A stretch of 64,000 nt of DNA from an uncultured Thermoleophilia bacterium (GCA_963702475.1 CAVPCT010000002.1:192001-256000), one strand, 5' to 3'. Shown: positions 44,063 through 60,435, numbered from the stretch's first letter. The notes: generated from the letters alone by a model not told the origin. Made by a program: numbers and translations.

Positions 44063-44560
44063 CGCCGGCGCCGGGCATCGCGAGGCCGGCGCCGGCAGAG
44101 ATGTCGCCGGGCGCGCCGCCGGCCGGCAGCTCCGGGACCACGGGGGAGAGGCGGCCGCCGGCCTTGACGGCGTTCCCGCTCGCCGGCGCGATCCTCGAGC
44201 GGTTCGCCGGCGCTCTCGGCCCCGACTACGCGGGGTACGCCGGGCACGTAGCGCGCGTACTGGCGTTCTACCGGGCTCTCGCGCCGGACCGGCAAGCGCC
44301 GGAGCAGGTGCAGGTCGCCGGCGCCTTCCACGACCTGGGCATCTGGACGGCGCGCACGTTCGACTACCTCGCGCCGTCTGTGTCCCTCGCGCGCGAGTAC
44401 CTGTCGGCCGAGGGCCGCGAAGCATGGACGCCGGAGGTCGAGACGATCATCCTGCAGCATCACAAGCTGACTCCGTACACCGGACCGTTGCGGATGACCG
44501 TCGAGACGTTCCGGCGGGCCGACCTCACGGACCTCTCACTGGGTCTCTTCCGCTCGCGCC
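44059..44560 (+). pseudogene. HD-domain phosphohydrolase-like protein, 3'-truncated
   Basis: Y..H..RV, FHDLGIWT, HHK, AD; runs into unrelated TA-derived sequence. Confidence 0.55.
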
Positions 44561-44583
44561 TGGCAGAGAGGAGATCGAGCCGT

Positions 44584-44855
44584 ATGGATGCTGAGGAGTT
44601 CGACAGGAAGTCCGATGACGGGCTCGAAGACGTCATGCAGTAGTGGACCTCTCCGGTGAGCGTCGACCCGATCGCGACACGAAGCGCGTGAGCGTCGATC
44701 TTCCCCCGTGGTTGGTCGATGCCCTCGATAACGAGGCTGCGCGCTTGGCGGTGACCCGGCAGTCTGTGATCGAAGTCCGGCTCTCGGAGAGGGTCGACCA
44801 GAACCGGCGCGCGCTGGAGGCCGAGGGCGCGCGCCGCAAGTCGCAGACTGGATAA
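44584..44855 (+). pseudogene. BrnA/CopG-type antitoxin, broken by stop and frameshift
   Basis: MDAEEFDRKSDDG then (other frame) KRVSVDLPPWLVDALDNEAARLAVTRQSVI; TAG at 44641. Confidence 0.65.
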
Positions 44856-44887
44856 CAGCGCTTCCTAGCTTCGTGGTACCTTCCTAC

Positions 44888-44944
44888 GCAGAAGCCGGAA
44901 GCTGCAGCAGAGGTCTTCTCTCTACTGCACAAATGCAGTCGGGC
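44888..44944 (+). repeat. 57-bp dispersed repeat, copy 1 (candidate attI-like site)
   Basis: 50/57 identical to 52698-52754; internal inverted repeat; ends GTCGGGC. Confidence 0.8.
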
Positions 44945-45616: not shown

Positions 45617-45703
45617 GCCCAACAAGCGGAGCAAGCTGGCTCGCCGAACCTCCGCGGCGCAGCGGAGCCGCGGCGCTCGCAGCTTCTCCGCGGCGCGTCA
45701 GCC
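45617..45703 (+). mobile_element. attC-like site 1
   Basis: GCCCAAC-aagcggagCaagctg...cagcttctccgc-GTCAGCC. Confidence 0.75.
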
Positions 45704-45745
45704 CGAACCGATCCTGTTCACACACCCGTAAGGAGATCTTCCACA

Positions 45746-46492
45746 GTGGACATCCCGCGGATCTTCACCATCACTGAGAGTGCTCACCGCATCCACAACC
45801 CGATCACACCCGAGAAGCTCGCCACTCTCGGCGCGGCGCTGCGTCTGGAATCGGGGGCGCGAGTGCTCGACCTCGGCAGCGGTTCGGGGGAGATGCTGTG
45901 CACCTGGGCGCGCGATCACGGCGTCAGCGGCACCGGCATCGACATGAGCCGGTCGTTCACCGAGCAGGCGAGACGCCGTGCTGAAGAGCTCGGCGTCGCC
46001 GATCGAGTCAAGTTCATCCACGGCGATGCCGCCGGCTATGTCTCTGACGAGAAGGCCGGCGTGGCGGCCTGTCTCGGTGCCACCTGGATCGGCGGGGGAG
46101 TCGCCGGCACCATCGAGCTCCTGGCGCGCAGCCTGCGCCCCGGAGGGATCGTCCTCATCGGCGAGCCCTACTGGCGGCAGGTGCCGCCGACGGAAGACGT
46201 CGCCAAGGGGTGTCTTGCCGGCGCGATCTCCGACTTCCTCCTGCTTCCGGAGCTTCTCGCGTCGTTCGGCCACCTCGGCTACGACGTCGTCGAGATGGTC
46301 CTGGCCGACCAGGACGGCTGGGACAGATACGAGGCGGCCAAATGGCTCACCATGCGCCGCTGGCTTGAAGCCAATCCCGATGACGAGCTCGCGAAGGATG
46401 TTCGAGCCCAACTGACCGCGGAACCCGAGCGCTACGCCGCGTACACGCGTGACTACCTGGGCTGGGGTGTGTTCGCACTGATGCCGCGGTGA
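45746..46492 (+). CDS. Class I SAM-dependent methyltransferase (YjhP-like)
   Basis: VLDLGSGSG, GEPYW, YLGWGVF. Confidence 0.88.
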   Translation: MDIPRIFTITESAHRIHNPITPEKLATLGAALRLESGARVLDLGSGSGEMLCTWARDHGVSGTGIDMSRSFTEQARRRAEELGVADRVKFIHGDAAGYVSDEKAGVAACLGATWIGGGVAGTIELLARSLRPGGIVLIGEPYWRQVPPTEDVAKGCLAGAISDFLLLPELLASFGHLGYDVVEMVLADQDGWDRYEAAKWLTMRRWLEANPDDELAKDVRAQLTAEPERYAAYTRDYLGWGVFALMPR

Positions 46493-46572
46493 TGCGTTGG
46501 CGCATGAGGCGGATCGTCAACGCCGAAGGTCATTGGCGGTTGGTCTGGGCCCAGATTGGCTACACGCGGTCG

Positions 46573-46657
46573 GGCTGATGAAGGCATCAACCTGACGGCC
46601 AGAAGGTGGACTGACCCGAGGGCGCCTGCGCCGCAGGTCATGCCTACGACGTTAGGC
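46573..46657 (+). mobile_element. attC-like site 2
   Basis: aggcatCaacctgAcg / cgcaggtcatgcct with the two extrahelical bases; ends GTTAGGC. Confidence 0.8.
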
Positions 46658-46681
46658 CGACGAGACGCGGGGATGGAGTCG

Positions 46682-47182
46682 ATGGGTGACATTGATCGTG
46701 ACGTTCGCGAGCTTCGCGCAGCGCTCGCGATGGGCAGGATCCAGAACGCTTACGTCGCACTCGTCAAGTACATGTCTCGACTTCGCGCAAGGTACGCGGG
46801 CGAGCGAGGGGACCGCACAGTCTCCGGCCTCTATCAAGGCTACTTTGACATGACGTACTTCGCGCTCTTTCCGGATTGGTTCAGGGAGCGCGACTTGAAG
46901 GTGGCGGTGGTCTTCGACTACGCGAGCTTCTCTTTCCAGGCATGGTTGGCGGCCCGCAATCGCAGGGTGCAGAGGTCCTACTGGGAGCAACTGCGTGACG
47001 CTGGATACACCGAACACACGTTGGTCGAGCCGGGTGCCGGGATCGATGCCATCGTGATCTCGGTTCTTGCCGACGACTTCTCCCTTGCTGATGAGTCTGC
47101 TCTGACCAGGCGAATCGAGGCTGGTGTGGAGTCCTTCGAAGACGACATGCTTGCCGTGCTCAGTGAACTGAGCGGTGTGTGA
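46682..47182 (+). CDS. DUF7000-like hypothetical cassette protein
   Basis: YQGYFDMTYFA, WLAARNR; atypical lower-GC codon usage. Confidence 0.65.
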   Translation: MGDIDRDVRELRAALAMGRIQNAYVALVKYMSRLRARYAGERGDRTVSGLYQGYFDMTYFALFPDWFRERDLKVAVVFDYASFSFQAWLAARNRRVQRSYWEQLRDAGYTEHTLVEPGAGIDAIVISVLADDFSLADESALTRRIEAGVESFEDDMLAVLSELSGV

Positions 47183-47186
47183 CGCG

Positions 47187-47273
47187 GCCGAACAAGCAGG
47201 AAGCTGATGCGGCGCAGGCCTTCTTGACTCTGTGAGGCCTGCGCGCACAGCTCATCCGCATGGGACGTTGCGC
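47187..47273 (+). mobile_element. attC-like site 3
   Basis: GCCGAAC..agctgAtgc..gcgcaggcct/aggcctgcgc..cagct..GTTGCGC. Confidence 0.7.
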
Positions 47274-47399
47274 CGGGACTCGAGGGTCGCGGCGTGCGTG
47301 GACTCGTCTACGGCGCGTATCGCGTCTTCGCCTCCACGCTCGGGAGTTGCTGAGCTTCGAGCCCCGGCCGTGGCGGCCGGGTCTCGAAGGATGCCTCGG

Positions 47400-47753
47400 T
47401 CATCCCCAAGCTCCGAGGATCGCGCCCATGATCGTGAACGCGACCGCGTGGTAGCCGGCGTCGATGAACCACAGCGCCAATGGCCGGCGCTCGAAGAGGT
47501 ACGTGATCGCCATGCCGGCCGCCACCCAGGCGACGCCGGCCGCGGCGCCGGCGGCCGCGCCGAAGGCGACGCCCACATCGGCGCCGATGAAGAACGCAAG
47601 GGTCGTGGCTGCGACCACGGCGACGACCGCCGACAGGCCGAACACCACGGGGAGCTTGCGGGCGGCGAGGTCGGCGTCGCTGAGCGCCGCGGCGCACTGC
47701 CACGCTTTCGCGAAGGGCAGGGGTGAGTACAACATCCCACCCAGAAGGAACAT
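47400..47753 (-). pseudogene. DUF1761-like membrane protein, 5'-truncated
   Basis: YSPLPF..AW, LFERRP..IDAGY. Confidence 0.6.
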
Positions 47754-47832
47754 CGACGCCGCCGCAGCGGCGATCGCGCCCCCGTCTCCACACCGCTCAT
47801 CGCGCCTTCCGGGAAAGGCTCGCGTCCGAGGA

Positions 47833-47898
47833 AGTAAAAAACTCTTGACATGATGTCCGCATCGCTTTACAGTACGTCATGTCAAACATTCCTGACAT
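47833..47898 (+). promoter_or_regulatory. Sigma70-type promoter with flanking operator-like palindromes
   Basis: TTGACA(47845)-17 bp-TACAGT(47868); ATGTCA-N8-TGACAT at 47879-47898 and a related copy over the -35. Confidence 0.75.
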
Positions 47899-47947
47899 CA
47901 TGAGCAGCCCCCACAGTGGGGCGACTCGCAGCAAGGAGGCGATCCTG

Positions 47948-48400
47948 ATGCCGTTCGAAGAGAAGATCTCATGGGTCAACGCGGTGGTCATGGCCATCGT
48001 CCCGGTGGCCTATTTCGTGATCATGCTGGGCCGGCTGGGCGACACGCCGGCGGCCGACATCTCCTACCAGTGGCCGCTCCTCATCGCCATCGGGGCGTCG
48101 ATCGTCCTGACCATCGTCGGGTCGATCCTGGCCGGCATCGGCACCGGCATCTCGGCGGAACTGCGCGGCAGGTCCGCCTCCGCCGAGATCGATCGCAAGG
48201 ACGAGCGGGACAAGCAGATCAGCCGTCACGGCGACCTGATCGGCTTCTCCGTCTCCTCCTTCGGCATGGTCGGCGTGCTCGCCCTCACGATGCTCGAGTA
48301 CGAGTATTTCTGGATCGCCAGCGTCCTCTATCTCTCGTTCGTGGTCGGCACGCTGGTCGGATCGGTGGTCAAGATCGTCTCGTACCACCGGGGCTTCTGA
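47948..48400 (+). CDS. Membrane protein (DERD motif) partnered with XRE regulator
   Basis: AAGGAGG RBS; 4 TM helices; KDERDKQI. Confidence 0.75.
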   Translation: MPFEEKISWVNAVVMAIVPVAYFVIMLGRLGDTPAADISYQWPLLIAIGASIVLTIVGSILAGIGTGISAELRGRSASAEIDRKDERDKQISRHGDLIGFSVSSFGMVGVLALTMLEYEYFWIASVLYLSFVVGTLVGSVVKIVSYHRGF

Positions 48401-48402
48401 CC

Positions 48403-48624
48403 ATGGGCAAGCCGACCAGAGTGACCAACCGCATCCGGGCGCTCCGCTTCGCCGCCGGCGAGATGACGCAGGCCGATCTCGCCGACAGGGTGGGCGTCAC
48501 GCGCCAGACCGTCATCGCCATCGAGCAGGGCCGGTACTCGCCGTCGCTCGAGATGGCCTTTCAGATCGCGCGGGTGTTCGACCTCCCGCTCGACGACGTG
48601 TTCCAGTATCCGAAGGAGAAGTGA
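48403..48624 (+). CDS. XRE-family HTH regulator
   Basis: MTQADLADRVGVTRQTVIAIEQGRYSPSL. Confidence 0.92.
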   Translation: MGKPTRVTNRIRALRFAAGEMTQADLADRVGVTRQTVIAIEQGRYSPSLEMAFQIARVFDLPLDDVFQYPKEK

Positions 48625-49376
48625 TGGACACCTCCACAATCCGCGCCGAGCCCACGGTGCTGCTCCTCGGCGGCACCGGGCGCACCGGCGGGCGCGTCCT
48701 GACGCAGCTTCTGGGCCGCGGCATCCGTTTGCGCGCCCTGGTCCGGTCGGCCGAGCGGCTCCCGGCGGGCGTCGCGGGCGACCCGCTGCTGACGATCGTC
48801 GAGGCGGACCTGCTCTCCCTGAGCGCCGAACAGGTCAAGGAGCAGGTCGACGGCTGCGACGTCGTGATCTCCTGTCTCGGCCACACCATCAGCGCGAAGG
48901 GGGTCTTCGGGCGGCCGCGCGACCTCGTCACGCGGTCGGTGGAGCGGGTGTACCGGGCGACTTGGGAGCTGCGGCCTGCGCGGCCCGTGAAGCTCATCCT
49001 CATGAGCAGCGTCTCCGTGAACCGCCCGGGAGGCCTGGACACGCGGCGCGGGTGGTTCCAGCGCGCCGCCCTCTGGCTGCTGCGCGGCCTCGTGCCTCCG
49101 GCGCGGGACAACCAGCGCGCCGCCGACTTCCTCCACGACGTCGTCGAGGCGGCCGATCCCTCTGCGGAGTGGGTGGTCGTCCGGCCCGACACGCTGAAGG
49201 ACGGCGACGTGACCGAGTACGCGCTGCACGAGGGTCTCGTGGACGGCATGTTCCGCCCCGGCGAGACCAACAGGGCCAACGTCGCCCATTTCATGTGCGA
49301 GCTGGCGAGCGACGTCGGGGCGTGGGCGGCCTGGCAGGGCAAGCTCCCCGTGATCGTGAACGCATCGCCTGAGTGA
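48624..49376 (+). CDS. NAD(P)H-binding atypical SDR
   Basis: GGTGRTG, WVVVRP, RANVAHFM. Confidence 0.85.
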   Translation: MDTSTIRAEPTVLLLGGTGRTGGRVLTQLLGRGIRLRALVRSAERLPAGVAGDPLLTIVEADLLSLSAEQVKEQVDGCDVVISCLGHTISAKGVFGRPRDLVTRSVERVYRATWELRPARPVKLILMSSVSVNRPGGLDTRRGWFQRAALWLLRGLVPPARDNQRAADFLHDVVEAADPSAEWVVVRPDTLKDGDVTEYALHEGLVDGMFRPGETNRANVAHFMCELASDVGAWAAWQGKLPVIVNASPE

Positions 49377-49563
49377 CCCCGCCGCGGCGGTGACGGCCGC
49401 CGCGCGCAGCCCCATGGGCATGGCCGACGCCTGACGTCGCCGTGCTCGCCTCGAGGTCGTGTGTGGTGCACGACCGACCCATCCAACGACGAGCCTGGGC
49501 TTGCCATGCGCTGCTTCGGCCCGTCACGGCCGCCGGCGCGAGACCAGCCGGCAGCGGGAGAAG

Positions 49564-51894
49564 ATGACAGTGACGCAGAGCGAGAACAAGCAGAACAGGC
49601 GGGGCGCCGGAGCGGGCTCCAGCCTCACGGAACGCCTGGCGCGCACCAGCGCCCTCCACCCGTGGCGCACCATCGGCATCTGGACGGTGCTCATCGTCCT
49701 CGCCGTGGTCGCGGTCGGTACGCTGCTCGGCAGCGGCCTGACCTCGGACATCAAGTTCCGTGCCGACAAGCCGGACAGCCTGGTCGGCCAGGAGCTCCTC
49801 GAGCAGCGTCTCACCGGGCCGCGGCAGATCACCGACTTCGTCATCGTGCGCTCGGCCTCGGCCACAGTCGACGACCCCGCATTCAAAGCCTACGTCGACG
49901 ACCTCACCCGCCGGATCACCGGCCTGGGCCCGGCGGTCGTCAGGAGCGTGTCCACCTACTACCAGACCGGTGACCCCACCGTCGTCTCGAGAGACGAGCA
50001 CGCGACCCTTATCCCCGTGGTCATGGCCGGCACCATCGACGACGCCGTGAAGAACGCGGGCAAGCTGCACACGCTCGTCGTGGCGGCCCAGGGCCGGGGC
50101 TTCACCGTCGCGCTGACCGGCGACGCGAGCATCATGGAGATGTTCATGACGCTCGCCGAGAAGGACCTGGCGCGCGGCGAGATCCTCGGCGTCCCCGCCG
50201 CGCTGATCGTGCTCCTGATCGTCTTCGGCGCGGTGCTCGCGGCGTGCATGCCGCTGCTGATGAGCATAATCAGCATCGTCCTCGCGCTGGCCCTGACCGC
50301 GCTCATCGGCCAGGTCTACCCGATGACCGCCTTCGCGCTGAACATCCTCACCATGATGGGCCTGGCGGTGGGCATCGACTACACACTCTTCGTGATCAGC
50401 CGCTACCGCGAGGAGCGCGCCCGAGGCCTCGCGAAGATCGACGCCATCGCCGCGACCGGCGCCACCGCCAATCGCGCCATCTTCTTCAGCGGCATGACCG
50501 TGGTGCTCGCCATGGCCGGCATGGTCATCATCCCGCTCGACGTCATGATCAGCATGGGCATCGGCGTGATGCTGGTGGTGTTCACCACGCTGGTGACGGC
50601 GCTCATCGCCCTGCCGGCGCTGCTGAGCCTGCTCGGGGACCGCGTCGACGCCCTCCGCGTGCCCTTCATCCGCCGCCGCGCCACCCGCCGTCTGAGCGGC
50701 GGCTCCGGCATCTGGGAGCGCCTGGCGCACAGCATCATGCGCCGCCCGGTCGTCTGGCTCACTATCGCCGTCGTGGCGCTGCTCGTGGCGGCCGCCCCCG
50801 TGATGATGATGAAGAGCGGCGACAGCACCGCGAGCGCAGCCCATCTTCCCGACAGTGAGTACGCGAAGCAGGGCTGGGACATCCTGGACCGGGACTTCAC
50901 CCTGGGCAAGGCCAATCCGCTGCTGATCGTGATCGACGGGCAGGCGGCCTTTCCGCAGGTGAAGCGGGCCGTGGAGGACCTGCAGGCGGCCATGAAGAGC
51001 GATGGCGACTTCGGCCCGGCCCGGGTCACAACGAACGAGGCCGGGGACCTCACCCTCATCACCACGACGCTCGCCGGCGATCCTGCGGGCGAGGCCACCC
51101 AGTCCGTCGTGAAGCGCCTGCGCGAGGACATCGTGCCGCGGGCCGCGGGCGGACTGGCCGCGAAGGTGTACGTCGCCGGCACCACCGCGGGCGTCGTCGA
51201 CTACCTCGGCTTCTTCGGCGCCTGGATGCCGGTGGCGATGGCGGTGATCCTGAGCCTGAGCTTCGTGCTCCTGCTGGTCGCCTTCCGCTCCGTCGTCATC
51301 CCGGCGCAGGCGATCCTCATGAACCTGCTGTCGGTCGGAGCCGCCTACGGCCTCATGGTGCTGGTCTTCCAGAAGGGTGTCGGCGCCGGCCTCCTTGGCC
51401 TCACCCAGGTCGACACCATCGAGGCCTGGGTGCCGCTCTTCCTCTTCAGCCTGCTGTTCGGCCTCTCCATGGACTACCAGGTGTTCCTGCTCAGCCGCAT
51501 CAAGGAGCGCTACGACGAGACCGGCGACACCCGCGAGGCGGTCGCCCACGGCCTCGGCCGCACCGCCGGCATCATCACCGGCGCGGCCGCCATCATGGTG
51601 TGCGTGTTCGGCGGCATGGCCACCGGCGAGCTGGTGATGTTCCAGCAGATGGGCTTCGGCCTCGCCGTGGCGGTCTTCCTCGACGCCACGGTGGTGCGCA
51701 CCATCATCGTGCCCGCCGCCATGGAGCTGCTCGGAGACTGGAACTGGTACCTGCCGCGCCGGCTGCAGTGGATCCCCGATGTCAGTGTGGAGGGGCGCAG
51801 CCACGAGCCGGCGGCGCCGAAGGAGCCCCGTCACCCCCGGCACGAGCCCGGCATCACCGTCCCGCGGCCTTCTCTCGGAGGCGCGGAGCACTAG
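49564..51894 (+). CDS. MMPL family RND transporter
   Basis: GIDY..SRYREE, GLSMDY, DAT.VR...VPA. Confidence 0.92.
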   Translation: MTVTQSENKQNRRGAGAGSSLTERLARTSALHPWRTIGIWTVLIVLAVVAVGTLLGSGLTSDIKFRADKPDSLVGQELLEQRLTGPRQITDFVIVRSASATVDDPAFKAYVDDLTRRITGLGPAVVRSVSTYYQTGDPTVVSRDEHATLIPVVMAGTIDDAVKNAGKLHTLVVAAQGRGFTVALTGDASIMEMFMTLAEKDLARGEILGVPAALIVLLIVFGAVLAACMPLLMSIISIVLALALTALIGQVYPMTAFALNILTMMGLAVGIDYTLFVISRYREERARGLAKIDAIAATGATANRAIFFSGMTVVLAMAGMVIIPLDVMISMGIGVMLVVFTTLVTALIALPALLSLLGDRVDALRVPFIRRRATRRLSGGSGIWERLAHSIMRRPVVWLTIAVVALLVAAAPVMMMKSGDSTASAAHLPDSEYAKQGWDILDRDFTLGKANPLLIVIDGQAAFPQVKRAVEDLQAAMKSDGDFGPARVTTNEAGDLTLITTTLAGDPAGEATQSVVKRLREDIVPRAAGGLAAKVYVAGTTAGVVDYLGFFGAWMPVAMAVILSLSFVLLLVAFRSVVIPAQAILMNLLSVGAAYGLMVLVFQKGVGAGLLGLTQVDTIEAWVPLFLFSLLFGLSMDYQVFLLSRIKERYDETGDTREAVAHGLGRTAGIITGAAAIMVCVFGGMATGELVMFQQMGFGLAVAVFLDATVVRTIIVPAAMELLGDWNWYLPRRLQWIPDVSVEGRSHEPAAPKEPRHPRHEPGITVPRPSLGGAEH

Positions 51895-51908
51895 CTCGGA
51901 CGAGGGCA

Positions 51909-51944
51909 GAAGGGGCGGGGCGCCCGCGGGCGCCCCGCCCCTTC
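51909..51944. terminator. Hairpin between convergent genes
   Basis: gaaggggcggggcgccc-gc-gggcgccccgccccttc. Confidence 0.75.
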
Positions 51945-51991
51945 CGTCGTTCTCTGAGGCGGCCACCCGGCCGGCGTGACCGCGGCGAGGC

Positions 51992-52436
51992 TCAGGCCAG
52001 CGTCGCCTCCACGCTGAGCTCCACGTTGCCCTTGAGTGCGCCGCTGATGGGGCAGCCGTCCCTGGCGTCCTCGGCGGCTTGATTGAACGCCGCCTGGTCG
52101 ATGCCCGGTACCCGGCCCTTGACCGTGATCCGCGATGAGCCGGTCTTCCAGCCGCCCTCGATCTCCTTGAACGTCACCGTGACGCTGGTCTCGAGCTTCT
52201 CGGGCGGGGTGCCGGCCTCACCGAGGATGTGCGAGAGCGCCATGCTGTAGCAGCTCGCGTGCGCGTCGGCCACGAGCTCCTGGGGGCTGGTCTTGCCGTT
52301 CGAGCGCTCGGTGCGCGATGCCCAGGTCACGGGCAGCGGGCCGGCGGCGCCGCTGGTCACCAGCGAGACTTCTCCGGAACCCTGACCCAGTGAACCCTGC
52401 CAGACTGCGTCGGCGACGGCGTGGTGCGTCGGCCAT
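51992..52436 (-). pseudogene. osmC: OsmC peroxiredoxin with +1 nt directly after the start codon
   Basis: AVWQGSL..GSG, HASCYSMAL, CPISGAL; RBS-preceded ATG is out of frame. Confidence 0.75.
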
Positions 52437-52697
52437 GACGGAACCTCCTTCAGGGTGGATGCTGGCGGCGGACGCCGCGCGGCGGCGCGGCGCCCACCTT
52501 CGCCACTGACGTCCCCAGCAGGTGCGGAACTCGAACCGGCGCGTCATGCGAGCCGCACTCCGACGACAGGTGACAGCCTAAGAACCGCAGAGTACGGTGA
52601 TGCATGACGCACTCGACAGGGGCGGCCGGCTGGGCCGTCGGGCCGGCATTCTCCCGTCTGCGTAAGTCCCTTCGTCGAGCGGGGAGCACTGTCTTAT

Positions 52698-52754
52698 GCA
52701 GAAGTCGACAGCTGCAGCAGAGGTCTCCTCTCTACTGCAGAAATGCAGTCAGCC
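52698..52754 (+). repeat. 57-bp dispersed repeat, copy 2 (candidate attI-like site)
   Basis: Matches 44888-44944; ends GTCAGCC 12 nt before the GNAT ATG. Confidence 0.8.
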
Positions 52755-52766
52755 GGAGGCCGCTCG

Positions 52767-53306
52767 ATGAGCACCGAGTGTGTCGTCCGGTTGGCCGACC
52801 CCGAGCACGTCGCCGCACTGCCCGCCATCGAGCGCGCGGCGGCCACCAGGTTCGGCGATTCGCTGCCTCAATCCGTGCTTTCGCATGTCACTTCGGTGGA
52901 CACCCTCGCGGCAGCACAACGTTCGGGTGTACTCTGGGTGGCTCTCGAATCAGCCTGCGACCCGATTGGATTCGCCGTTGCCAGCGTCTGCGGACGGCGC
53001 GTGCATCTCGACGAACTCGATGTGCTTCCTGAGCATGGTCGCAAGGGTGTGGGATCGGCGCTTGTCGAGGCAGTCGAGAACTGGGCGCTGCACAGCGACT
53101 ACATCGAAATCACCCTCACCACCTTCCGCGACGTCCCATGGAATGCGCCGTTCTATGCTCATATCGGTTTCGTGGTGATACCGGAGGGCGAACTCGATGC
53201 GGATCTCCTTCGAAGACTCTCAGATGAGTCTGCCATGGGTCTGGAACGTGTCAGACGGGTGGCGATGCGCAAGTCGCTTAGCCGTCTGACAGGCGCTTCA
53301 ACCTGA
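52767..53306 (+). CDS. GNAT acetyltransferase
   Basis: V.PEHGRKGVGSAL, TTFRDVPWNAPFY. Confidence 0.88.
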   Translation: MSTECVVRLADPEHVAALPAIERAAATRFGDSLPQSVLSHVTSVDTLAAAQRSGVLWVALESACDPIGFAVASVCGRRVHLDELDVLPEHGRKGVGSALVEAVENWALHSDYIEITLTTFRDVPWNAPFYAHIGFVVIPEGELDADLLRRLSDESAMGLERVRRVAMRKSLSRLTGAST

Positions 53307-53481
53307 CGCGACAGCTCCTCGGCTATCCTGAAAGCGCTCGGCGCGCAGGTTTGCCGCTCTTGAGGCGGAGCTGTCGATAGCCGAGATCGCGTCTATCGAA
53401 GAAGTCATGCCTCCTGACGTTGCCGCTGGGACGCGCTACTCTGAAGCCTCGATGCGGGGACTGGATCTGTGATCGTGCGCC

Positions 53482-53541
53482 GCCGAACAAAGGGTTGCAG
53501 CCGACGTTGCTCCGCAACGCGGCTGACTCCTAACGCTACCG
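53482..53541 (+). mobile_element. attC-like site 4 (classic ~60-bp form)
   Basis: GCCGAAC..cagccgAcgttgc-tcc-gcaacgcggctg..; degenerate right core GCTACCG. Confidence 0.75.
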
Positions 53542-53616
53542 GTACAGCAGGGACGTGGGGCCAGTGTCCACCACTCGGGTGTTGCGTCCGTCCGCATCGC
53601 GGGGGAGACTGAAGCC

Positions 53617-53847
53617 ATGCGCAACACCGACCTCGATATCTCCAAGCTCTCAGTCGCCGAGCGCATCCAGCTCGCGGAGGACCTCTGGGACAGCGTCGCC
53701 GCCGAGACCGGTGACCTGCCGCTCACCGAGGCGCAGGCCGCCGAGCTCGACCGCCGCCTCGCCGAGCTCGAGCGCGACCCCGAGGCCGGCGAGAGCTGGC
53801 CGGTCGTGCGCGCGCGCATCGAGCAGCGCCTCGACAGGGCCGGCTGA
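53617..53847 (+). CDS. Addiction module antitoxin component
   Basis: LSVAERIQLAEDLWDS..ELDRR..SW. Confidence 0.88.
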   Translation: MRNTDLDISKLSVAERIQLAEDLWDSVAAETGDLPLTEAQAAELDRRLAELERDPEAGESWPVVRARIEQRLDRAG

Positions 53848-53850
53848 GGC

Positions 53851-54153
53851 GTGCGCCTCGTCGTCCGCGAGGCGGCCGAGGCGGACATCGCCGAAGCCGC
53901 CCGTTGGTACGAGCAGCGCTCACCTGGCCTCGGATCGGAGTTCCTGCGCGCCGTCGACGTCACCCTCGCCGAGACCACGCGCATGCCCGAGCGTTACCCG
54001 GTCGTCCGCGGCAGAGCTCGCCGTGCTCTGCTCCGCCGTTTCCCCTAAGCGGTCTACTTTGTCGCCACCCCGGACCTCATCAGCGTCTTCGCTCGCCTGC
54101 ACGCGCGACGCGACCCGAGGCATTGGCGGGAGCGCAGCGAAGCTGACCGCTAA
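53851..54153 (+). pseudogene. RelE/ParE toxin with internal TAA (54046)
   Basis: WYEQRSPGLG.EF..RRFP*AVYF..HARRDP..W. Confidence 0.8.
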
Positions 54154-54180
54154 TCCGAACGTGCGTCGGGCGGGGTAGAG

Positions 54181-54576
54181 GTGGTCACGTCACTGCGACC
54201 CGTCGTGGAGGGCGACCAGGCGAGCATCCAGCGCTGGGCAGGCCTCGCCGCCGGCCACATGTCGCGCACGCATCGTCTCGATGACGCTGCCGATCGCCAC
54301 GCTCCCGCTGAGGGGCTCTGCTGGTACATCCTCGACGCTGACGGCCGCGACGTCGGCACCGTCTGGGTCGAACTGCCCCCCGGCTCAGGCGAAGCGGTCC
54401 TCGGCATCTTCCTCTGCGATGCCTCGCATCTCGGTCGCGGCATCGGCGCCGCCGCCGTCGAGCGCGCCATCGCCTGCTACCGCCGGGTCGGCTTCACGGT
54501 CACCGGCAGCGGCACCAGGTCGCTGCCCTCCGGCGAGACCGTCCCCTACTACAGCATGGTCCTCCCGCCGTGCTGA
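54181..54576 (+). CDS. GNAT acetyltransferase, probably internally deleted
   Basis: GRGIG directly followed by RAIACYRRVGF. Confidence 0.6.
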   Translation: MVTSLRPVVEGDQASIQRWAGLAAGHMSRTHRLDDAADRHAPAEGLCWYILDADGRDVGTVWVELPPGSGEAVLGIFLCDASHLGRGIGAAAVERAIACYRRVGFTVTGSGTRSLPSGETVPYYSMVLPPC

Positions 54577-54797
54577 CCCCCATCTCGCCGACGTTCCCCG
54601 ACCTGCCTCACAAGCGCGAGGTCGAGCACGCGCTCACGCAGGTCGAGACGTTTCCCGAGGCGGCGGAGCCGCTCCGCGACCGGGTGAGCCGGCGCCACTT
54701 GCACACGTTCCCCTGCGCGCTGCGCACCGATGAGGTCCGCGTCCTCGCGGTGGCGTATCAGAGGCGCCGGCCGTTCTACTGGGAGGATCGCCGGTGA
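54570..54797 (+). pseudogene. RelE/ParE toxin remnant
   Basis: FP..VLAVAYQRRRPFYW. Confidence 0.55.
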
Positions 54798-54801
54798 GTG
54801 C

Positions 54802-54891
54802 GGCTGACAAGCGGATCAAGCCGGCTCGCCGCAGCGCCGGCGGCCTCACGGGAGGCCGGCGCGCTCGCAGCTTATGCGCGGTGCGCTAGCC
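54802..54891 (+). mobile_element. attC-like site 5
   Basis: GGCTGAC-aagcggatCaagccg...cagcttatgcgc-GCTAGCC. Confidence 0.78.
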
Positions 54892-54896
54892 AGACG

Positions 54897-55340
54897 ATGG
54901 CGGTGCGCTTGCAGACCCGGGCGGCAACCCATGACGACACACCGTTTCTGGTGCAGCTTGCGTGCGAGGCGTACCGCGACGTGGTCACCCTCCAGTTCGG
55001 CAGCTGGAACGAGCGCGAGCAGGCCACTCGCTTCGCGGCCAAGGTCGCGCGGCTGCCGTTCGAGGTCGGTGTGCTCGCGGACCGGCCGATCGCTACGGTC
55101 TCGTCGTCGGTCCACGCCGATCGCGTCGTCCTGAACGAACTGCTCGTACTGCCGGAGTTCCAGAACCGCGGGTTCGGCAGCGAACTGCTCGGGCGCGAGA
55201 TCCAGCGCGCTCTGCAGCTGGGCCTCCCACTGCGGCTGCACACGCTCCGGCGAAACCGGGCGTTGCGCCTCTTCGAGCGTCATGGTCTCATCGTCACGGC
55301 ACAGGGAGAGGTCTTCATCGACATGGAACGTGCTGGCTGA
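54897..55340 (+). CDS. GNAT acetyltransferase
   Basis: PEFQNRGFGS, NRALRLFER. Confidence 0.85.
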   Translation: MAVRLQTRAATHDDTPFLVQLACEAYRDVVTLQFGSWNEREQATRFAAKVARLPFEVGVLADRPIATVSSSVHADRVVLNELLVLPEFQNRGFGSELLGREIQRALQLGLPLRLHTLRRNRALRLFERHGLIVTAQGEVFIDMERAG

Positions 55341-55424
55341 CATGCGGAGAGAGCTGGCTCGCCGCAGCGCCGACGCTGTCATCAGAAGTCGGCGCGCTCG
55401 CAGCTTGTCCGCGGTGCGTTTGAT
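55335..55424 (+). mobile_element. attC-like site 6
   Basis: GGCTGAC overlaps the stop codon; gagctggctcgccgcagcgccg...cggcgcgctcgcagcttgtccgc-GTTTGAT. Confidence 0.75.
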
Positions 55425-55470
55425 CTGGCGACGCTGACGAATCCCCAGACGCCTGGCCCGGAGGTAGCTG

Positions 55471-56067
55471 GTGCACCTTGTCCTTGATAACCAGCGAGAG
55501 GCAGCGGCCGAGACGCTCGCGGAGGCGTTCAGAAATGATCCGCTGCTCCAGGTTCTCGCGCCCGACCCACGACGGCGGGTGGCAGTCGGTCGTTGGTTCT
55601 TTCGGGTCAGCATCGATTACGGGATGCGATGGGGCCGCGTCTGGGGCGCTGACGACGCCGCGGCGGTCTCCATCTGGCTGCCGCCGGGCAGTCGCTGGAG
55701 CGCCCTGCGCTCGTTGCGCGTCGGGATGGCCGCCTTCCCGTTCCGGGTGGGGCCAGGACCGATGCTGGACGTCATACGAGTCGCCCCTGCTCTCGAACGA
55801 CTCCACCGTTCGGTTCGTGGGCCGCACTGGTATCTCATGGCGATCGGTACGAGACCGTCGAGGCAGGGCGAAGGTTTGGGCAGCGCGCTCGTCGCGGCTG
55901 GTACGTCGCAAGCGGACCTCGCAGGGCTGCCCTGCTACCTTGAGACGTCTACGCAGAGCGCTGTCGACTTCTATGTCAAGCGGGGGTTCGAGGTCGTTGG
56001 CCAGGAGGATCTCAACGGGCACATCCTGTTCGGAATGGTGCGCCCTACGGCATCGTTGCTCATCTGA
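55471..56067 (+). CDS. GNAT acetyltransferase (puromycin N-acetyltransferase-like fold)
   Basis: HWYL..IGTRP..QGEGLGSAL, YLET..FY..RGF. Confidence 0.85.
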   Translation: MHLVLDNQREAAAETLAEAFRNDPLLQVLAPDPRRRVAVGRWFFRVSIDYGMRWGRVWGADDAAAVSIWLPPGSRWSALRSLRVGMAAFPFRVGPGPMLDVIRVAPALERLHRSVRGPHWYLMAIGTRPSRQGEGLGSALVAAGTSQADLAGLPCYLETSTQSAVDFYVKRGFEVVGQEDLNGHILFGMVRPTASLLI

Positions 56068-56145
56068 CCGGCGCCTCAAGCTGACGTCCAGAAGGTCGTA
56101 GCGACGTGAAGGCGCACGGGGCAGCTCATCGGTCACGTGTTGGTC
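56062..56145 (+). mobile_element. attC-like site 7 (degenerate)
   Basis: ATCTGAC overlaps the stop; Caagctg...cagctc; ends GTTGGTC. Confidence 0.6.
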
Positions 56146-56214
56146 ACAGCCTTCTCCACTGGTTGCGAGGGTACGTTAGTGGTACCGTTGTCAGTAGCAC
56201 AGGAGGTAGCGTCA

Positions 56215-56490
56215 ATGGTATCAGTACCTGACATCGTCCCCATCACCGACCTCCGCCAGGACGCCTCGGGCGTGATCAAGCGCGCGTCCGACACGCAGCA
56301 GCCGGTGTTCATCACGCAGCGCGGCCGCGCCACCGCCGTCGTCGTCAGCGCCAGGGCCTACGAGCGCACGCAGCACGAGCTCGAGGTCCTGCGCCTGCTC
56401 GCACGCGGCGAAGCCGAGATCGAGGCCGGCTCAGGCCACACGCTCGCCGACGTGCTGGCCGAGGCCGACGGGCTGCTCGGCAGGCCGTGA
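56215..56490 (+). CDS. Phd/YefM antitoxin
   Basis: AGGAGG RBS; PITDLRQ..PVFITQRGRATAVVVS. Confidence 0.9.
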   Translation: MVSVPDIVPITDLRQDASGVIKRASDTQQPVFITQRGRATAVVVSARAYERTQHELEVLRLLARGEAEIEAGSGHTLADVLAEADGLLGRP

Positions 56491-56846
56491 GCCGCAGGGT
56501 CCTCTTCACCCCCGCCGCCCGTGAGCAGTTCCTTGCGGCGCTCGCCTACACCGCTGCCGCAGACCCGGCGGCAGCGCGGAGTCTGCGCGATCGCGCCGCG
56601 GCCTCGCTCTCCCGCCTCGCCGACTACCCGGGGTCGGGGCGCGCGCTGCCCGAGTTCCCCGACCTGTCGTTCCGTGCGGTCATCGTGCCACCGTACCGCT
56701 TCTTCTACCGCGTCATGGACGACGCGGTCTGGGTGGTCGCGGCGTGGCACTCGGCCAGCTCCCTGGCGAGCCGACGGACGTTGGGCGTGACTGACAAGCG
56801 GAGAAGCTGGCTCGCAGGCAGCTCTACGGTACACTTCGTAGCGTGA
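56487..56846 (+). CDS. RelE/ParE toxin
   Basis: L..YPGSGR.LPEFPD..PYRFFYRV..VAAWH. Confidence 0.85.
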   Translation: MSRRVLFTPAAREQFLAALAYTAAADPAAARSLRDRAAASLSRLADYPGSGRALPEFPDLSFRAVIVPPYRFFYRVMDDAVWVVAAWHSASSLASRRTLGVTDKRRSWLAGSSTVHFVA

Positions 56847-56877
56847 GCGCTGGCAGCTTGTCCGCGAGGCGTTAGGC
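56789..56877 (+). mobile_element. attC-like site 8
   Basis: GACTGAC-aagcggagaagctg...cagcttgtccgc-GTTAGGC. Confidence 0.78.
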
Positions 56878-56908
56878 GAACGAGCAGCGCTCAACAGGGG
56901 GCGAGTGC

Positions 56909-57379
56909 ATGCTGCCGCAAGCGGGACAGGGTCCATGGTGGGCGGCGTTGACGGTGTGGGGTGTCGTCAACTCCGTCAACGTGCTTCAGGCCCTCGGGTT
57001 CCTCTCCAGGGTTCGTTCCGGGGCCATGACGCTCAATCACCGTCTGGGCTACGTGATGATCGCACTCGCCGCGCCGACTCTGATCGCGCTGGTCGGTTAC
57101 GTGAAGTCCCGGGCGGGAGTCCTGACCTATCTCGGTCCGCTCGCGTACCTCGGTTTCGTGGCGTTGATGCTGGCGGTCGACTACATCGCTCCGGTGGAGT
57201 TCCGCTCACCGCCTCGCTACGTCATCCTTGTGCCCTATCTCGCGCTCTTCTTCGGCGCGATCCTCTTGATGGGCCTCCCGATGTACGAGCTGAACCGCTC
57301 GTACTGGCTGGTGACCGTCGTGACCAGCGCGTTGCTCCTTGCCTCCATGGTCGCGGCCATGCGTAAGGGAGTGGGCTGA
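56909..57379 (+). CDS. Hypothetical membrane protein (cassette)
   Basis: About 5 TM helices; bounded by attC-like sites. Confidence 0.7.
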   Translation: MLPQAGQGPWWAALTVWGVVNSVNVLQALGFLSRVRSGAMTLNHRLGYVMIALAAPTLIALVGYVKSRAGVLTYLGPLAYLGFVALMLAVDYIAPVEFRSPPRYVILVPYLALFFGAILLMGLPMYELNRSYWLVTVVTSALLLASMVAAMRKGVG

Positions 57380-57401
57380 CGAGACGCGCGGGTGGATCGT
57401 C

Positions 57402-57491
57402 GCCTGACAAGCGCATCGAGTTGGCTCGCAGTAAGCTCACCGCTGGACTGCATCGCGTGAGCGCTCGCAGCGTGTCCGCGGCGCGTTCGAC
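57402..57491 (+). mobile_element. attC-like site 9
   Basis: GCCTGAC-aagcgcatCgagttggctcgc...gcgctcgcagcgtgtccgc-GTTCGAC. Confidence 0.72.
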
Positions 57492-57542
57492 GCACGCCGT
57501 TTCTTTGCGGGCGGAGATGCAGCGAGAGGCGGGGAGGCCTGG

Positions 57543-57881
57543 ATGGCATCGGAATTGAGCTTCGTCGAGTTCGTCTGCGACCAGCTTCGTGACGCCGGCG
57601 AGCCGTCGTTTCGCAAGATGTTCGGCGAGTATGTGATCCACCTTGACGGCAAAGTCGTCGCGCTCGTGTGCGACGACCGCCTCTTCGTCAAGCAGACCGC
57701 CGGCGGGCGAGCCTTCCTCGGCGATCCGGTCGAAGCCCCTCCGTATCCCGGGGCCAAGCCGTACTTCCTGATCGGTGACGGACTCGATGATCATGCGTGG
57801 TTGAGCGCGCTGGTTCGCGTGACCACAGAGGAGCTTCCGCCGCCCAAGCCCAAGCGCGCGAGGCGTCCGCGCTCGGAGTAG
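57543..57881 (+). CDS. TfoX/Sxy N-terminal domain protein
   Basis: RKMFGEY, LVCDDRLFVK, PPYPGAK. Confidence 0.9.
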   Translation: MASELSFVEFVCDQLRDAGEPSFRKMFGEYVIHLDGKVVALVCDDRLFVKQTAGGRAFLGDPVEAPPYPGAKPYFLIGDGLDDHAWLSALVRVTTEELPPPKPKRARRPRSE

Positions 57882-58195
57882 CCGGCCTCGGACTGTCGCC
57901 ACGTCACGGGCAATCGCATCGAGCATCCGTCGCCCGACATGCCGGCGTCGAACAAGGGCGTCAACCTGACAACCACGCCGTAGACTGCGGAAGAGAAGTG
58001 CGTCGAACCCCGCCGCCCCGGGCGGCGCGCGCCCAACCAGGTGGTCGCACTTCCCTGCCCGATGCTCTGATGCGGCAGCGCTCCGCGCATCGGCGCGGAT
58101 CCCCGCGAACCTCCGTCTGCACGCGAGCGTCCCACGGGCAAGGGCACAGCCGGCGCAGCCGTTTCCGGCGTGCTCACTCCAGAAGGGGGACCGTG

Positions 58196-58936
58196 ATGGC
58201 ACTCAGGAACAGGTACGCTACCGCCGGACTCGTCGCGGCTCTCGCCCTGGCGCTCGGCGCGCTTGCGGGATGCGGCACTACCGCCACCACTGCCACGTCC
58301 ACCCAGGCAGGCGCCGCCGCCGGCACCGTGACCGCCTCCGGCATGGGCACCGCGCAGGCCGCGCCGGACACGGCCGAGATGTCCTTCGGCGTGACCACGA
58401 TGGCGTCCGACGCAAAGTCGGCACTCGACGACGCCTCCGCGGTCGCCGAGCAGATCGCCTCCGCGGTCAAGAAGCAGGGCGTCGCCGCCGAGGACATCCA
58501 GACGCGCGACGTCAGCGTCTACCCGCAGACGCTAGACCAGGACGGCAAGCAGGTCATCAGCGGCTACCAGGCCTCGCTCAGCGTGCAGGTCAAGGTGCGC
58601 GACATCGCCAAGCTCGGCGAGGTCATCTCGGCGGCGAACGCCGCCGGCGCCAACAGCATCAGTGGACCCGCGTTCACCATCGCCGATCCGGCGCCCGTCC
58701 GCGCGAAGGCGATCGACGAGGCCGTGGCCGACGCCCGCAAGAGCGCCGAGGCGATGGCGAAGGCGGCCGGCAAGAGCGTCGGAGAGGTGCTGAGCATGAG
58801 CTCAGGCGACGTGGGCCTGGTCTCCGTCCCGATGTACGGAGGGGGCGGCGACATGGCCGAGGCGGCCAAAGTGCCCATCGAGCCGGGCCAGCTCGACGTC
58901 ACGGCGAACGTGGTCGTGGTCTTCGAGCTCAAGTAG
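58196..58936 (+). CDS. SIMPL (DUF541) domain lipoprotein
   Basis: Lipobox LAGC; APD.A, GAN.ISGP.F, PIEPGQ. Confidence 0.88.
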   Translation: MALRNRYATAGLVAALALALGALAGCGTTATTATSTQAGAAAGTVTASGMGTAQAAPDTAEMSFGVTTMASDAKSALDDASAVAEQIASAVKKQGVAAEDIQTRDVSVYPQTLDQDGKQVISGYQASLSVQVKVRDIAKLGEVISAANAAGANSISGPAFTIADPAPVRAKAIDEAVADARKSAEAMAKAAGKSVGEVLSMSSGDVGLVSVPMYGGGGDMAEAAKVPIEPGQLDVTANVVVVFELK

Positions 58937-59204
58937 CCTTGCAGGGCTGAAGCGGGGCAAGCGCTCCGGTTCCTCACGACCCGTCGACACGAGGGCGGCC
59001 ACGGTGCCGCCCTCCTTGGCTGTTGGGCCACGGGCAACGGCGAGCGACTGTGCCTGCTCGCCGCCGTGGGACGGGCCGGCGGTGTCTCCTCACCTGCCCG
59101 ACGCTAAGCGAACGCAGGAGCAGGGAACGAGTCTGTCGACATCATCTGGATGCGCGACCCTCGGACTTCTCACCTGCGGCGCGCCTGACCTGAAGGCGGC
59201 CCTC

Positions 59205-59574
59205 GTGGAGCTCGGTGCGTTCCCGGTGAGTCTCAACGTGCGGGACATCGCAGCGTCCGCGCGTTCTACGAGAGGCTCGGTTTCACTCCCGTCATGGGTG
59301 ATGCGGATCAGGGGTGGCTCATCATGCGCAACGCCCGGACCACCCTCGGGTTGTTCCGGGCGATGCTCGAGAGCACCACCCTCACCTGTGACCCCGGCTG
59401 GGACGCAGAGGCGAACGAACTCAGCTCGTTCGCCGACGTCCGCGAGATCCAGCGCGACCTGAAGGCTGCCGGAGTCCAACTCGACAGCGAGGTGGATGAG
59501 TCGGGGCAGGGCCGGGAAGCCTCGTGCTCCACGACCCCGACAGCACCCCGATCCTTGTCGACCAGCACGTGTAG
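59205..59574 (+). pseudogene. VOC/glyoxalase family protein, frameshifted
   Basis: ELGAF.VSLNVRDI / FYERLGF / LGLF..PGW..DVREIQ / ILVDQHV across different frames. Confidence 0.7.
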
Positions 59575-59775
59575 CGCGCGGGTCGGGTGGACTTCGCGGT
59601 CGTGCCGCGCGTCGCCCAACAGGCGCGTCGACCTGATGCCGGCGCTGAGGAGGCGCTGGCCGAGCAGCTGGTGCGCACCAGGCCATGGAGGGAGTCGCAG
59701 CAGAGGGGTGGCCGGTCCGTCCGACAAGCGGATGCGTAGCGTCCATGCACCTCTGCGATGTCGAGAGGAGCGCTG

Positions 59776-60174
59776 ATGGCTCATACCTGCCGAACCGGTG
59801 GATGCCTCTGCGGGGCGGTCCGGCTTGAGATCTCGGGCGAGCCGTATCGAGTGGGCATTTGCCACTGTCTGGATTGCCGCAAGTATCACGGCGCGGTCTT
59901 CAGCACCTTCGCCGTCTTTCCAGCCGATGCAGTCGCGGTCACAGGCGAAACGAGGAGCTATCGCGACCGGCATTTCTGTCCTGTCTGCGGAGCCTCGGTG
60001 TTCAGCTACTCCGCGGACGAGATCGAGGTCCCTCTGGGCGTCTTCGACGTGCCAGATCAGATGAGGCCGACCTACGAGATCTGGACCAGGCGTCGCGAGG
60101 GCTGGCTGCCTCCCTTCGCTGTCGCCCGCCGCTTCGACGGCGATCGGGAGGGCACCGGAAGGGCGGAGCCCTGA
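59776..60174 (+). CDS. GFA (Mss4-like) family protein
   Basis: GGCLCG, CHCLDCRK, RHFCPVCG. Confidence 0.9.
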   Translation: MAHTCRTGGCLCGAVRLEISGEPYRVGICHCLDCRKYHGAVFSTFAVFPADAVAVTGETRSYRDRHFCPVCGASVFSYSADEIEVPLGVFDVPDQMRPTYEIWTRRREGWLPPFAVARRFDGDREGTGRAEP

Positions 60175-60435
60175 CAAGACCACTGCGTCGATGGAGAGGG
60201 TGGAACGGGGCTTCGTCTGGGCGACGTTGCAGGGGAGAGGCTCGGTGGCCACGGCCGCATGGAGTCGGTCGTCGACGCCCGCGCCAGCCCCATGGCTCCG
60301 ATCACCGCCACGAACAAGACGTCTTCGGGAGCCGTCAGGGAGCGATCTCATCCGCCGTCCGCGACGGCGGCTGCCTTCGCCGCGACGAGGCGCTGGGTGG
60401 TTCCAGTTCGGTGCTCGCGCGGCGTGAGCGGTCGA

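Follow-up and report, generated by a model that had tools for sequence, protein, structure and literature searches.

Does a cassette array whose attC sites carry GAC and GTC in place of the AAC and GTT triplets contain a new kind of recognition site, or an old one that has worn away? The question is raised by a stretch of 64,000 nucleotides from an uncultured Thermoleophilia bacterium (GCA_963702475.1 CAVPCT010000002.1:192001-256000; hereafter the window), which has a G+C content of ~70% and belongs to a metagenome-assembled genome (MAG) of the Actinomycetota, designated G000 here, as other G-numbers designate the genomes compared with it. Between 44.85 and 60.2 kb, small open reading frames (ORFs) on the plus strand alternate with repeats of 60-90 nt, and a preliminary description had read the cores of several repeats as a GC-adapted variant site, possibly served by an integrase of relaxed specificity. 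Our analysis favours another answer: the unusual cores probably reflect compositional erosion of disused sites in an array that lacks an integrase, directed by the bias of the host against particular short words.

Distribution of the non-canonical cores

The cores lie where the preliminary description had placed them. Left cores read GGCTGAC at 54802 and 55335, ATCTGAC at 56062, GACTGAC at 56789 and GCCTGAC at 57402, while right-end motifs read GTCAGCC at 45697 and 52748, GTCGGGC at 44938, GCTAGCC at 54885 and GTTAGGC at 46651 and 56871. The ORF list also confirmed that a TGA stop falls inside TGAC in ORFs 54798..55340, 55471..56067 and 59758..60174, with Pfam domains GNAT, GNAT and GFA, respectively. 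Two of the right ends had been attributed to attC wrongly, as those at 44938 and 52748 belong to the two copies of an attI-like element of the genus, and the attC proposed at 60169-60232 had no covariance-model match and a fold z of +0.41 against shuffles.

Five of the repeats, at 45617, 54802, 55335, 56789 and 57402, make up a family of related sites (family A, alignment A1), the consensus fold of which has a long L-box stem. The bottom strand of 45617-45703 folds in an attC-like manner, with one bulged base on the 3' side of a long stem and spacers of unequal length, and presents imperfect R''-L''...L'-R' repeats, an unpaired spacer and an extrahelical L-box base, and one site follows each cassette, on the plus strand and in the orientation of the ORFs. 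The folds of most window sites were no better than those of shuffles. A search model built from the five sites (R1) was too narrow and left the other window sites within noise, and a motif-and-stem scan for attC-like sites over 43-61 kb was dropped after returning hundreds of chance matches in this G+C-rich DNA. Model R2, built from 150 sites and including the R and L pairs, detected 217 sites at E <= 1e-3 in 14 congener arrays and the window. It brought out two more cores of the same type, GGCTGAT at 46573 and GTCTGAC at 53284, the latter in an unfiltered search of the window that also added ATCTGAC at 56062 and, weakly, GCCGAAC at 53482. The sites are arranged in two arrays, the first with three model-supported sites and the second with six at E <= 0.05 (53284, 54802, 55335, 56062, 56789 and 57402) besides the weaker 53482, and neither has an integron integrase (IntI).

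At the seven model-detected sites of the window, the left core (R'') ends in GAC in four, GAT in one and AAC in two, and the right core (R') begins with GTT in five, GTC in one and GCT in one, the fifth GTT being GTTGCGC once a raw register slip (TTG) was resolved. The corresponding tallies for 193 sites in 13 congeners other than G020 were ~90% AAC, with 12 GAC, on the left and ~91% GTT, with 4 GTC and 6 GCT, on the right, a few register slips having been kept and counted as non-canonical. The frequency of GAC or GAT left cores thus differs strongly between the window and these congeners (5/7 versus 12/193; Fisher p = 5e-5), although this and the other p-values given below are rough, as the sites of one array are non-independent. 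When all twelve left cores, including the candidate CCCTGAC at 60169, and all twelve right cores of the window are counted, left cores comprise seven GAC, one GAT and four AAC, and right cores six GTT, three GTC, two GCT and one CTT. The R'' ending in AAC and the R' beginning with GTT, which the same site family retains in ~90% or more of cases in the congeners, are therefore not conserved here. G020 is the nearest sampled relative, with 87.8% nucleotide identity over pntA-pntB versus 83.6-85.2% for the others, and its 17 sites have eleven GAC, five AAC and one AGC on the left, and eleven GTT, three GTC and three other triplets on the right.

The same core change does recur, as had been observed, and it does so more often than change at the average conserved A/T position (4/5 versus 21/70 overall). 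Covariation of GAC with GTC within cassettes did not appear: among the 11 window cassettes with both ends, a hand count gave left G with right C in two, G with T in five, A with C in one and A with T in three, with no association. A search of the genome for other copies with nhmmer gave the five window copies and one weak match on contig C3, with nothing else. That lone match outside the array (~877836-877910, nhmmer E 1.7e-4) retains the central GCAGCGCCGGCGGCC...GCGCTCGCAGC part of the attC family, without recognisable cores.

Ancestral states and the missing integrase

Cassettes are common across the genus at ~85-91% identity and, on the evidence of their orthologous ends, the GAC, GTC and GCT states of the window are derived from canonical sites. 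The Phd/ParE cassette reads GTTAGTC...GACTAAC in G001, G021 and G018, and GTTGGTC...GACTGAC in the window and in G020; the methyltransferase cassette reads GTTAGCC...GGCTAAC in G020, G011 and G013, and GTCAGCC...GGCTGAT in the window; and the GNAT cassette at 52768 has GTCAGCC...GTCTGAC where G028 has GTTAGAC...GTCCAAC. The MazF cassette starts with GTTGGGC in congeners and GTCGGGC in the window, and a ParDE-type cassette with GTTAGCG in congeners and GCTACCG in the window, where its own attC is internally deleted. A CA-to-TG double change in the Phd/ParE left core was also considered and discarded, the orthologues showing one A-to-G change in each R-box half. In an automated look-up, all four GAC-type cores of the window with a usable orthologue had AAC in at least one other genome, and all five such GAC cores of G020 had AAC elsewhere. 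Most events differ between G000 and G020, and the changes are therefore parallel. Of the proposed GC-adapted variant site, what stands is that the change is compositional and directed towards G+C; an adapted site is unsupported, given the derivation of GAC, GTC and GCT from canonical orthologous sites.

The pairing between neighbouring sites has also been lost. Crossover takes place at G|TT, and the six bases that follow the G move together with the cassette downstream, so that the left core should complement the right core upstream. It does so at 34/34 junctions in G016, 15/17 in G001, 10/13 in G018, 3/15 in G020 and 0/5 in the window. Position 3 is mismatched at 9/15 junctions in G020, whereas the outer four R-box positions still match between neighbouring window sites, and the pair 57485/57947 matches at 7/7. 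The G016 array (L034, G016:C7), with its 34/34 exact 7-nt complements, is unusually pristine and would make a good reference for this attC family. The window bears other damage as well, with one attC internally deleted, two degenerate and one ParE gene carrying an early stop.

No integron integrase was found in G000, where the best TIGR02249 score was 80.9 bits against a cut-off of 265, with no match on the contig of the window; tblastn of congener IntI against G000 returned only ~37%-identical Xer-like genes on contig C5 and no IntI remnant at the locus. G000 hence lacks the complete integron, with an intI that exceeds the TIGR02249 cut-off and has the IntI-specific extra domain beside attI and array, that congeners possess at 435-482 bits. 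Among 61 genomes (G000, 36 congeners and 24 further members of the class), IntI exceeded the cut-off in 17, at 273-482 bits, and all 17 belong to this genus; the IntI of the congeners aligns over its full length to VchIntIA (PDB 2A3V) with an E of 1.4e-90. These IntI-bearing congeners retain AAC/GTT, which, with the lack of an integrase in G000, speaks against the suggested integrase of relaxed specificity. Chromosomal integrons are a genus-wide trait, with IntI over the cut-off in 17 of the 36 congeners and attC matches in 47 of 54 genomes of the genus (G000 included), up to 58 per genome. Some public records with an IntI 90-91% identical to that of the genus are labelled Deltaproteobacteria and others Thermoleophilia, and at least some of these labels are likely to be wrong.

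The position from which the integrase is missing can be located through the congeners. In G006, G021, G022, G011, G018, G020, G016 and G001, intI stands just after pntB, the conserved left neighbour of the integron. G022 shows, on one strand, intI, ~130 nt, a 60-nt element ending in GTTGGGT, the first cassette and a family-A attC (ACCCAAC...GTTGGGC). A search of eight loci with the model from the five window sites gave 0 attC matches on the far side of intI, while 201 matches lie on the array side and on the intI strand in the 14 array loci and the window; intI thus points towards the array. The window contains contiguously pntB (transhydrogenase beta, 42258..43643, plus strand, 81-86% identical by tblastn to the pntB just upstream of intI in the eight congeners), an HD-domain ORF, a 70-aa ORF, an attI-like element and the array. 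The HD-domain ORF (43783..44643, plus strand; Pfam HD, E 6e-5) occupies the place of the congeners' intI and has no homologue in any fetched congener locus, and the 70-aa ORF (44643..44855, plus strand), which lies between intI and attI in congeners, is 75-81% identical by tblastn to its counterparts in G035 and G001 and has no Pfam match. This shared gene order identifies the platform as orthologous, with intI missing from it. In G020, intI carries two frameshifts, whereas ~4.3 kb of neighbouring genes carry none. Frameshifts in some MAGs may nevertheless be assembly errors, as pntB is split into two reading frames in the G011 (L018) and G018 (L022) assemblies, and this limits what can be made of 'broken' intI genes in, for example, G001, G009 and G013.

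An attI is a unique site beside intI at which cassettes insert, and it ends in G|TT. The attI-like element, 59-63 nt long, matches the sequence that separates intI from the first cassette in G035, G009, G001 and G022, a position that suggests attI function; in the window it ends in GTC and occurs twice, without intI. Copy 1 (44882..44944, plus strand) ends in GTCGGGC and shows 90-94% identity with the element that directly follows intI in G035, G009 and G001, where the counterparts end in GTTGGGC or GTTAGCG. Copy 2 (52692..52754, plus strand) is left-truncated, its match to the attI of congeners starting only at 52692, ends in GTCAGCC and is 88% identical to copy 1 over 59 nt. Each copy heads a cassette array, copy 2 after a 5.4-kb block free of attC, and it could represent a second lost integron or a rearrangement.

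Host word bias and the readings it bears on

In the family-A sites, columns with at least 85% A or T in congeners were changed in 21/70 cells, 20 of them to G or C, against 5/130 cells for conserved G/C columns; in congeners the two rates are about equal and mostly below 13%. The positions most affected were the first A of AAC (4/5), the A of TTATC (4/5), the T of GATC (3/5) and one spacer T (3/5). Context matters: left cores after T were TGA(C/T) in 8/8 cases and those after C or G were AAC in 4/4 (Fisher p = 0.002), and TpA columns were changed in 8/10 cells versus 13/60 for other A/T columns (p = 6e-4). The words lost are those that the host avoids. The 4.3-Mb G000 genome contains only 510 TAAC and 510 GTTA (observed/expected 0.10), and CTAA (0.046) and TTAG (0.045) rank third and second in avoidance among all 256 tetramers, whereas TGAC stands at 1.24 and CAAC at 0.92. 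More broadly, G000 avoids TTAA, TTAG, CTAA, TAAA and CTAG (0.04-0.06), far below the 0.48 of the TpA dinucleotide. In the congeners, TAAC and GTTA have ratios of 0.06 and 0.09 in 212 kb of non-array DNA and of 0.5-1.5 in the arrays; the arrays of G000 (0.22 and 0.39) and G020 (0.17 and 0.22) are falling towards background. A difference in host G+C was rejected as the cause, G000 having 70.2% and the congener flanks 69-73%. Non-canonical triplets also lie farther from attI, with a mean normalised rank of 0.71 (33 sites) versus 0.46 (156 sites) in the 12 congener arrays with at least five sites, G000 and G020 excluded (one-sided Mann-Whitney p = 7e-6; loci cut at 20 kb, a few register slips, sites non-independent).

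According to the reading we hold probable, the 44.85-60.2 kb region would be a cluster of attC sites lacking integron integrase (CALIN), left over from a sedentary chromosomal integron of the type that characterises this Thermoleophilia genus. The cores of its attC and attI elements would originally have been canonical (xxCTAAC/GTTAGxx), and point substitutions, for the most part A-to-G and T-to-C, would have worn them in this lineage. By using the sites, IntI may preserve their CTAA, TTAG, TAAC and GTTA words in congeners against a 10- to 20-fold avoidance by the host; with no such maintenance in G000, host-avoided words would be lost first, CTAAC giving CTGAC, and GTTAG giving GTCAG, GTTGG or GCTAG, with CAAC and GAAC cores left unchanged. 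Relaxed selection after disuse would accordingly be the cause of the core change, and the window sites would now be poor or inert substrates. The simple decay that the preliminary description had named as the contrary case is nearly what the data show, except that the decay is not uniform and is steered by the avoidance of particular short words.

Several observations weigh against erosion. G020 is hot only at the first A of AAC (11/17), with its other conserved A/T positions, including the TTATC TpA, nearly untouched, and such a single-position change is not predicted by uniform relaxation. The skew of A/T-to-G/C over reverse changes in the window, 20 to ~3, exceeds the ~1.2:1 of neutral drift to 70% G+C by a rough hand estimate. 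G003, G015, G017 and G075 have canonical cores, although in their assemblies no IntI match exceeds the cut-off and IntI fragments are absent as well. GAC makes up ~6% of left cores in arrays with an intact IntI, and the site at 54802 is GAC also in G006, whose IntI is intact, so that GAC alone is no proof of a dead site. The G000 MAG is 93.8% complete with 6.5% contamination, and an integrase might lie on unassembled DNA. A general rule that arrays without IntI are rich in GAC was, for its part, rejected on the basis of five additional congeners in which no IntI match exceeds the cut-off and GAC ends 2 of 56 left cores; several of these arrays reach contig ends.

If GAC were instead a tolerated functional variant, it would have spread in the G000/G020 lineage at a time when the integrase still worked, perhaps with an altered preference, and loss of the integrase would have come later; we regard this as unlikely. 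With GAC, the uncleaved strand would have C in place of the last T of GTT, and cytosine, too, has an O2. In IntI1, the lysine contacting this base binds its O2 and, in assays of engineered GTC/GAC cleavage-site mutants of attC(aadA7), VCR and attI1, IntI1 recombined GTC/GAC in one partner at wild-type level (Frumerie et al. 2010, PMC2811028). The same assays cut the other way where GTC was in both partners, recombination being 150-fold down, and a GTC attC was uncleaved in vitro (PMC2811028). The position-specific change in G020, with the other conserved positions intact, fits such a variant, as do the independence of the A-to-G events in the two lineages, the GAC sites beside intact IntI, the G006 orthologue among them, and two window cassettes with the matched pair GTC/GA(C/T). 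Against this, the partner is still T in five of the seven GAC-type cassettes of the window and at 9/15 junctions of G020, which leaves a C.A mismatch in the folded bottom strand, and the window shows changes at the other two triplet positions too (GCT twice, GAT and AAT). G000 has no IntI, and that of G020, with its two frameshifts beside undamaged neighbours, keeps the GKGGKDR stretch with the contacting lysine unchanged. That avoidance of CTAA and TAAC pushed a working G000/G020 integron to C for the uncleaved-strand third T in most sites seems to us quite improbable; were it true, the 'invariant' triplet could evolve in nature, and the integrase would have tolerated an unpaired C.A beside the cleavage site before it was lost.

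Two other explanations look beyond recombination. Stop-codon usage might drive the change, as the left core often overlaps the stop of the cassette gene and a high-G+C host prefers TGA to TAA; three or four left-core TGAs are real stops (55340, 56067 and 60174), and the change is confined to cores preceded by T. A left-core stop, however, ends a convincing ORF (at least 60 codons, GC3 of at least 0.8) in only 1/4 cases in the window, 1/11 in G020 and 2/20 in G016, congeners of the same G+C retain TAAC, and positions outside any stop have changed as well, in right cores (GTTA to GTCA or GTTG) and in TTATC, so that we give this explanation hardly any credence. It is very unlikely, too, that once recombination had ceased the hairpins were retained because they act on the top strand or as RNA, a role in which only transitions giving top-strand G.T (G.U) wobbles are allowed, favouring left A-to-G over right T-to-C. 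The left core does have G at its first triplet position in 8 window and 11 G020 sites, versus ~3 and 3-4 with C as the third triplet base of the right core, and both A-to-G changes of the Phd/ParE cassette form wobbles when the top strand folds and mismatches when the bottom strand does; but the asymmetry is modest, common descent accounts for some of the events, the stems also contain T-to-G transversions and G.G mismatches, and most sites fold no better than shuffles.

The locus compares with known systems as follows. A CALIN is a group of two or more neighbouring attC sites that has no integron integrase in its vicinity. The window resembles one in that its attC sites, all in one orientation, delimit cassettes of one gene or a toxin-antitoxin pair, and in that IntI is absent both from the vicinity and from the rest of the genome. 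Such clusters are viewed as products of integron disruption by Cury et al. 2016 (PMC4889954). The window departs from the CALINs described there in that its ancestral platform can be placed exactly, through the congeners' intI after pntB, and that two attI-like elements survive; the directional decay of cores, from A/T to G/C in host-avoided words, has no description in the accessible part of that paper. Among sedentary chromosomal integrons, an intI on the same strand as the cassettes is a feature of the 'inverted' integrase group, for example in Treponema, and the congeners share with this group an intI, attI and cassettes read one way, long arrays and homogeneous sites; they differ in their host, a Thermoleophilia genus of the Actinomycetota, and the window differs further in having no intI. 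No complete integron is reported from complete actinobacterial genomes in the IntegronFinder papers, including PMC4889954. The engineered mutants of PMC2811028 change the same base pair as the window, the third T of GTT and the first A of AAC; they were altered on both sides, which kept the pairing, and assayed with IntI1, whereas the window is mostly altered on one side and has no integrase. All integrons known at the time of that study had GTT, according to its authors. A literature search for natural GTC cores found nothing, and one for integrons in Actinobacteriota MAGs brought up resistome papers; actinobacterial CALINs may be listed in the supplementary tables of the IntegronFinder papers.

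A cassette array with non-canonical cores need not, then, point to a new recognition site, and the comparison of orthologous cassettes in relatives can expose derived states of decay. The congeners form a natural contrast of arrays that are pristine, worn at the far end or without an integrase, which shows the attC positions that integrase use holds against the 10- to 20-fold word bias; the third triplet position goes first, in agreement with the tolerance of IntI1 at this position (PMC2811028). Models of attC weighted towards AAC/GTT will under-call such arrays in high-G+C genomes, and even the genus-specific R2 scored several window sites weakly.

Cassettes and sites along the locus

The cassette ORFs comprise, by Pfam, RHH and MazF, a methyltransferase, DUF7000, four GNAT, two antitoxin/ParE pairs, TfoX_N, SIMPL and GFA. 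All sites listed here are on the plus strand. Array 1 opens with the attC of the RHH-MazF cassette at 45617..45703 (R'' GCCCAAC, R' GTCAGCC; R2 71.4 bits), and orthologues of the cassette that follows begin with GTTAGCC. The methyltransferase cassette ends at 46573..46657 (R'' GGCTGAT, R' GTTAGGC; R2 32.5 bits, E 9e-7; bottom-strand fold z = -2.39), where 3/3 orthologues have GGCTAAC, and the DUF7000 cassette closes the array at 47187..47273 (R'' GCCGAAC, R' GTTGCGC; R2 24.8 bits, E 9e-5; fold z = -2.99). The block between the arrays (47274..52691) carries genes in both orientations, among them an 811-aa ORF and a putative HTH-like ORF, and has no R2 attC match below E = 0.8.

In array 2, the degenerate attC of the GNAT cassette at 53284..53365 has R'' GTCTGAC, an R' reduced to CTTGAGG and a 3-nt deletion (R2 23.9 bits, E 1.6e-4; fold z = +0.14), while its G028 orthologue reads GTCCAAC...GTTCGAC. 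A short attC at 53482..53541 (R'' GCCGAAC, R' GCTACCG) is a weak R2 match (E 0.19; fold z = -2.74), and the cassette after it begins with GTTAGCG in G006, G009 and G020. The ParE-like toxin gene at 53851-54048 has its early stop where the G020 orthologue reads on and covers Pfam ParE positions 3-48 of 89. Alignment with G006, G009 and G020 identifies 54148..54171 (CGCTAAT ... GTCGGGC) as the internally deleted attC remnant of the ParDE-type cassette, where these three genomes have CTAAC followed by a full attC.

The site at 54802..54891 (R'' GGCTGAC, R' GCTAGCC; R2 86.3 bits) has R'' orthologues GGCTAAC in G035 and GGCTGAC in G006, and R' GTTAGCC in G006. At 55335..55424 (R'' GGCTGAC, R' GTTTGAT; R2 74.2 bits) and 56062..56145 (R'' ATCTGAC, R' GTTGGTC; R2 14.4 bits, E 0.044), the TGA is the stop of a GNAT gene, and the R' of the latter is the start of the Phd/ParE cassette, GTTAGTC in G001, G021 and G018. 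The attC of that cassette at 56789..56877 (R'' GACTGAC, R' GTTAGGC; R2 68.2 bits) corresponds to GACTAAC in four genomes, GACCAAC in one and GACTGAC in G020. It is followed by the site at 57402..57491 (R'' GCCTGAC, R' GTTCGAC; R2 59.9 bits) and by an attC at 57947..58046 with a canonical R'' GTCGAAC, which complements the R' GTTCGAC before it (57485) at 7/7 positions, a degenerate 3' half and a left arm resembling that of the 46573 site; this last has no covariance-model match. A candidate last site at 60169..60232 (CCCTGAC ... GTTGCAG, TGA being the GFA stop) is proposed from its letters alone. Suspected gene pieces, aldo-keto-reductase-like at ~53374-53469 and glyoxalase-like at 59294-59773, had no Pfam match. 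Converging on the end of the array, an 1104-aa ORF on the minus strand (60436-63750) contains near-identical internal DNA repeats of ~270 nt at 61100-61780 and 62440-62900 and probably encodes a repeat-domain surface protein.

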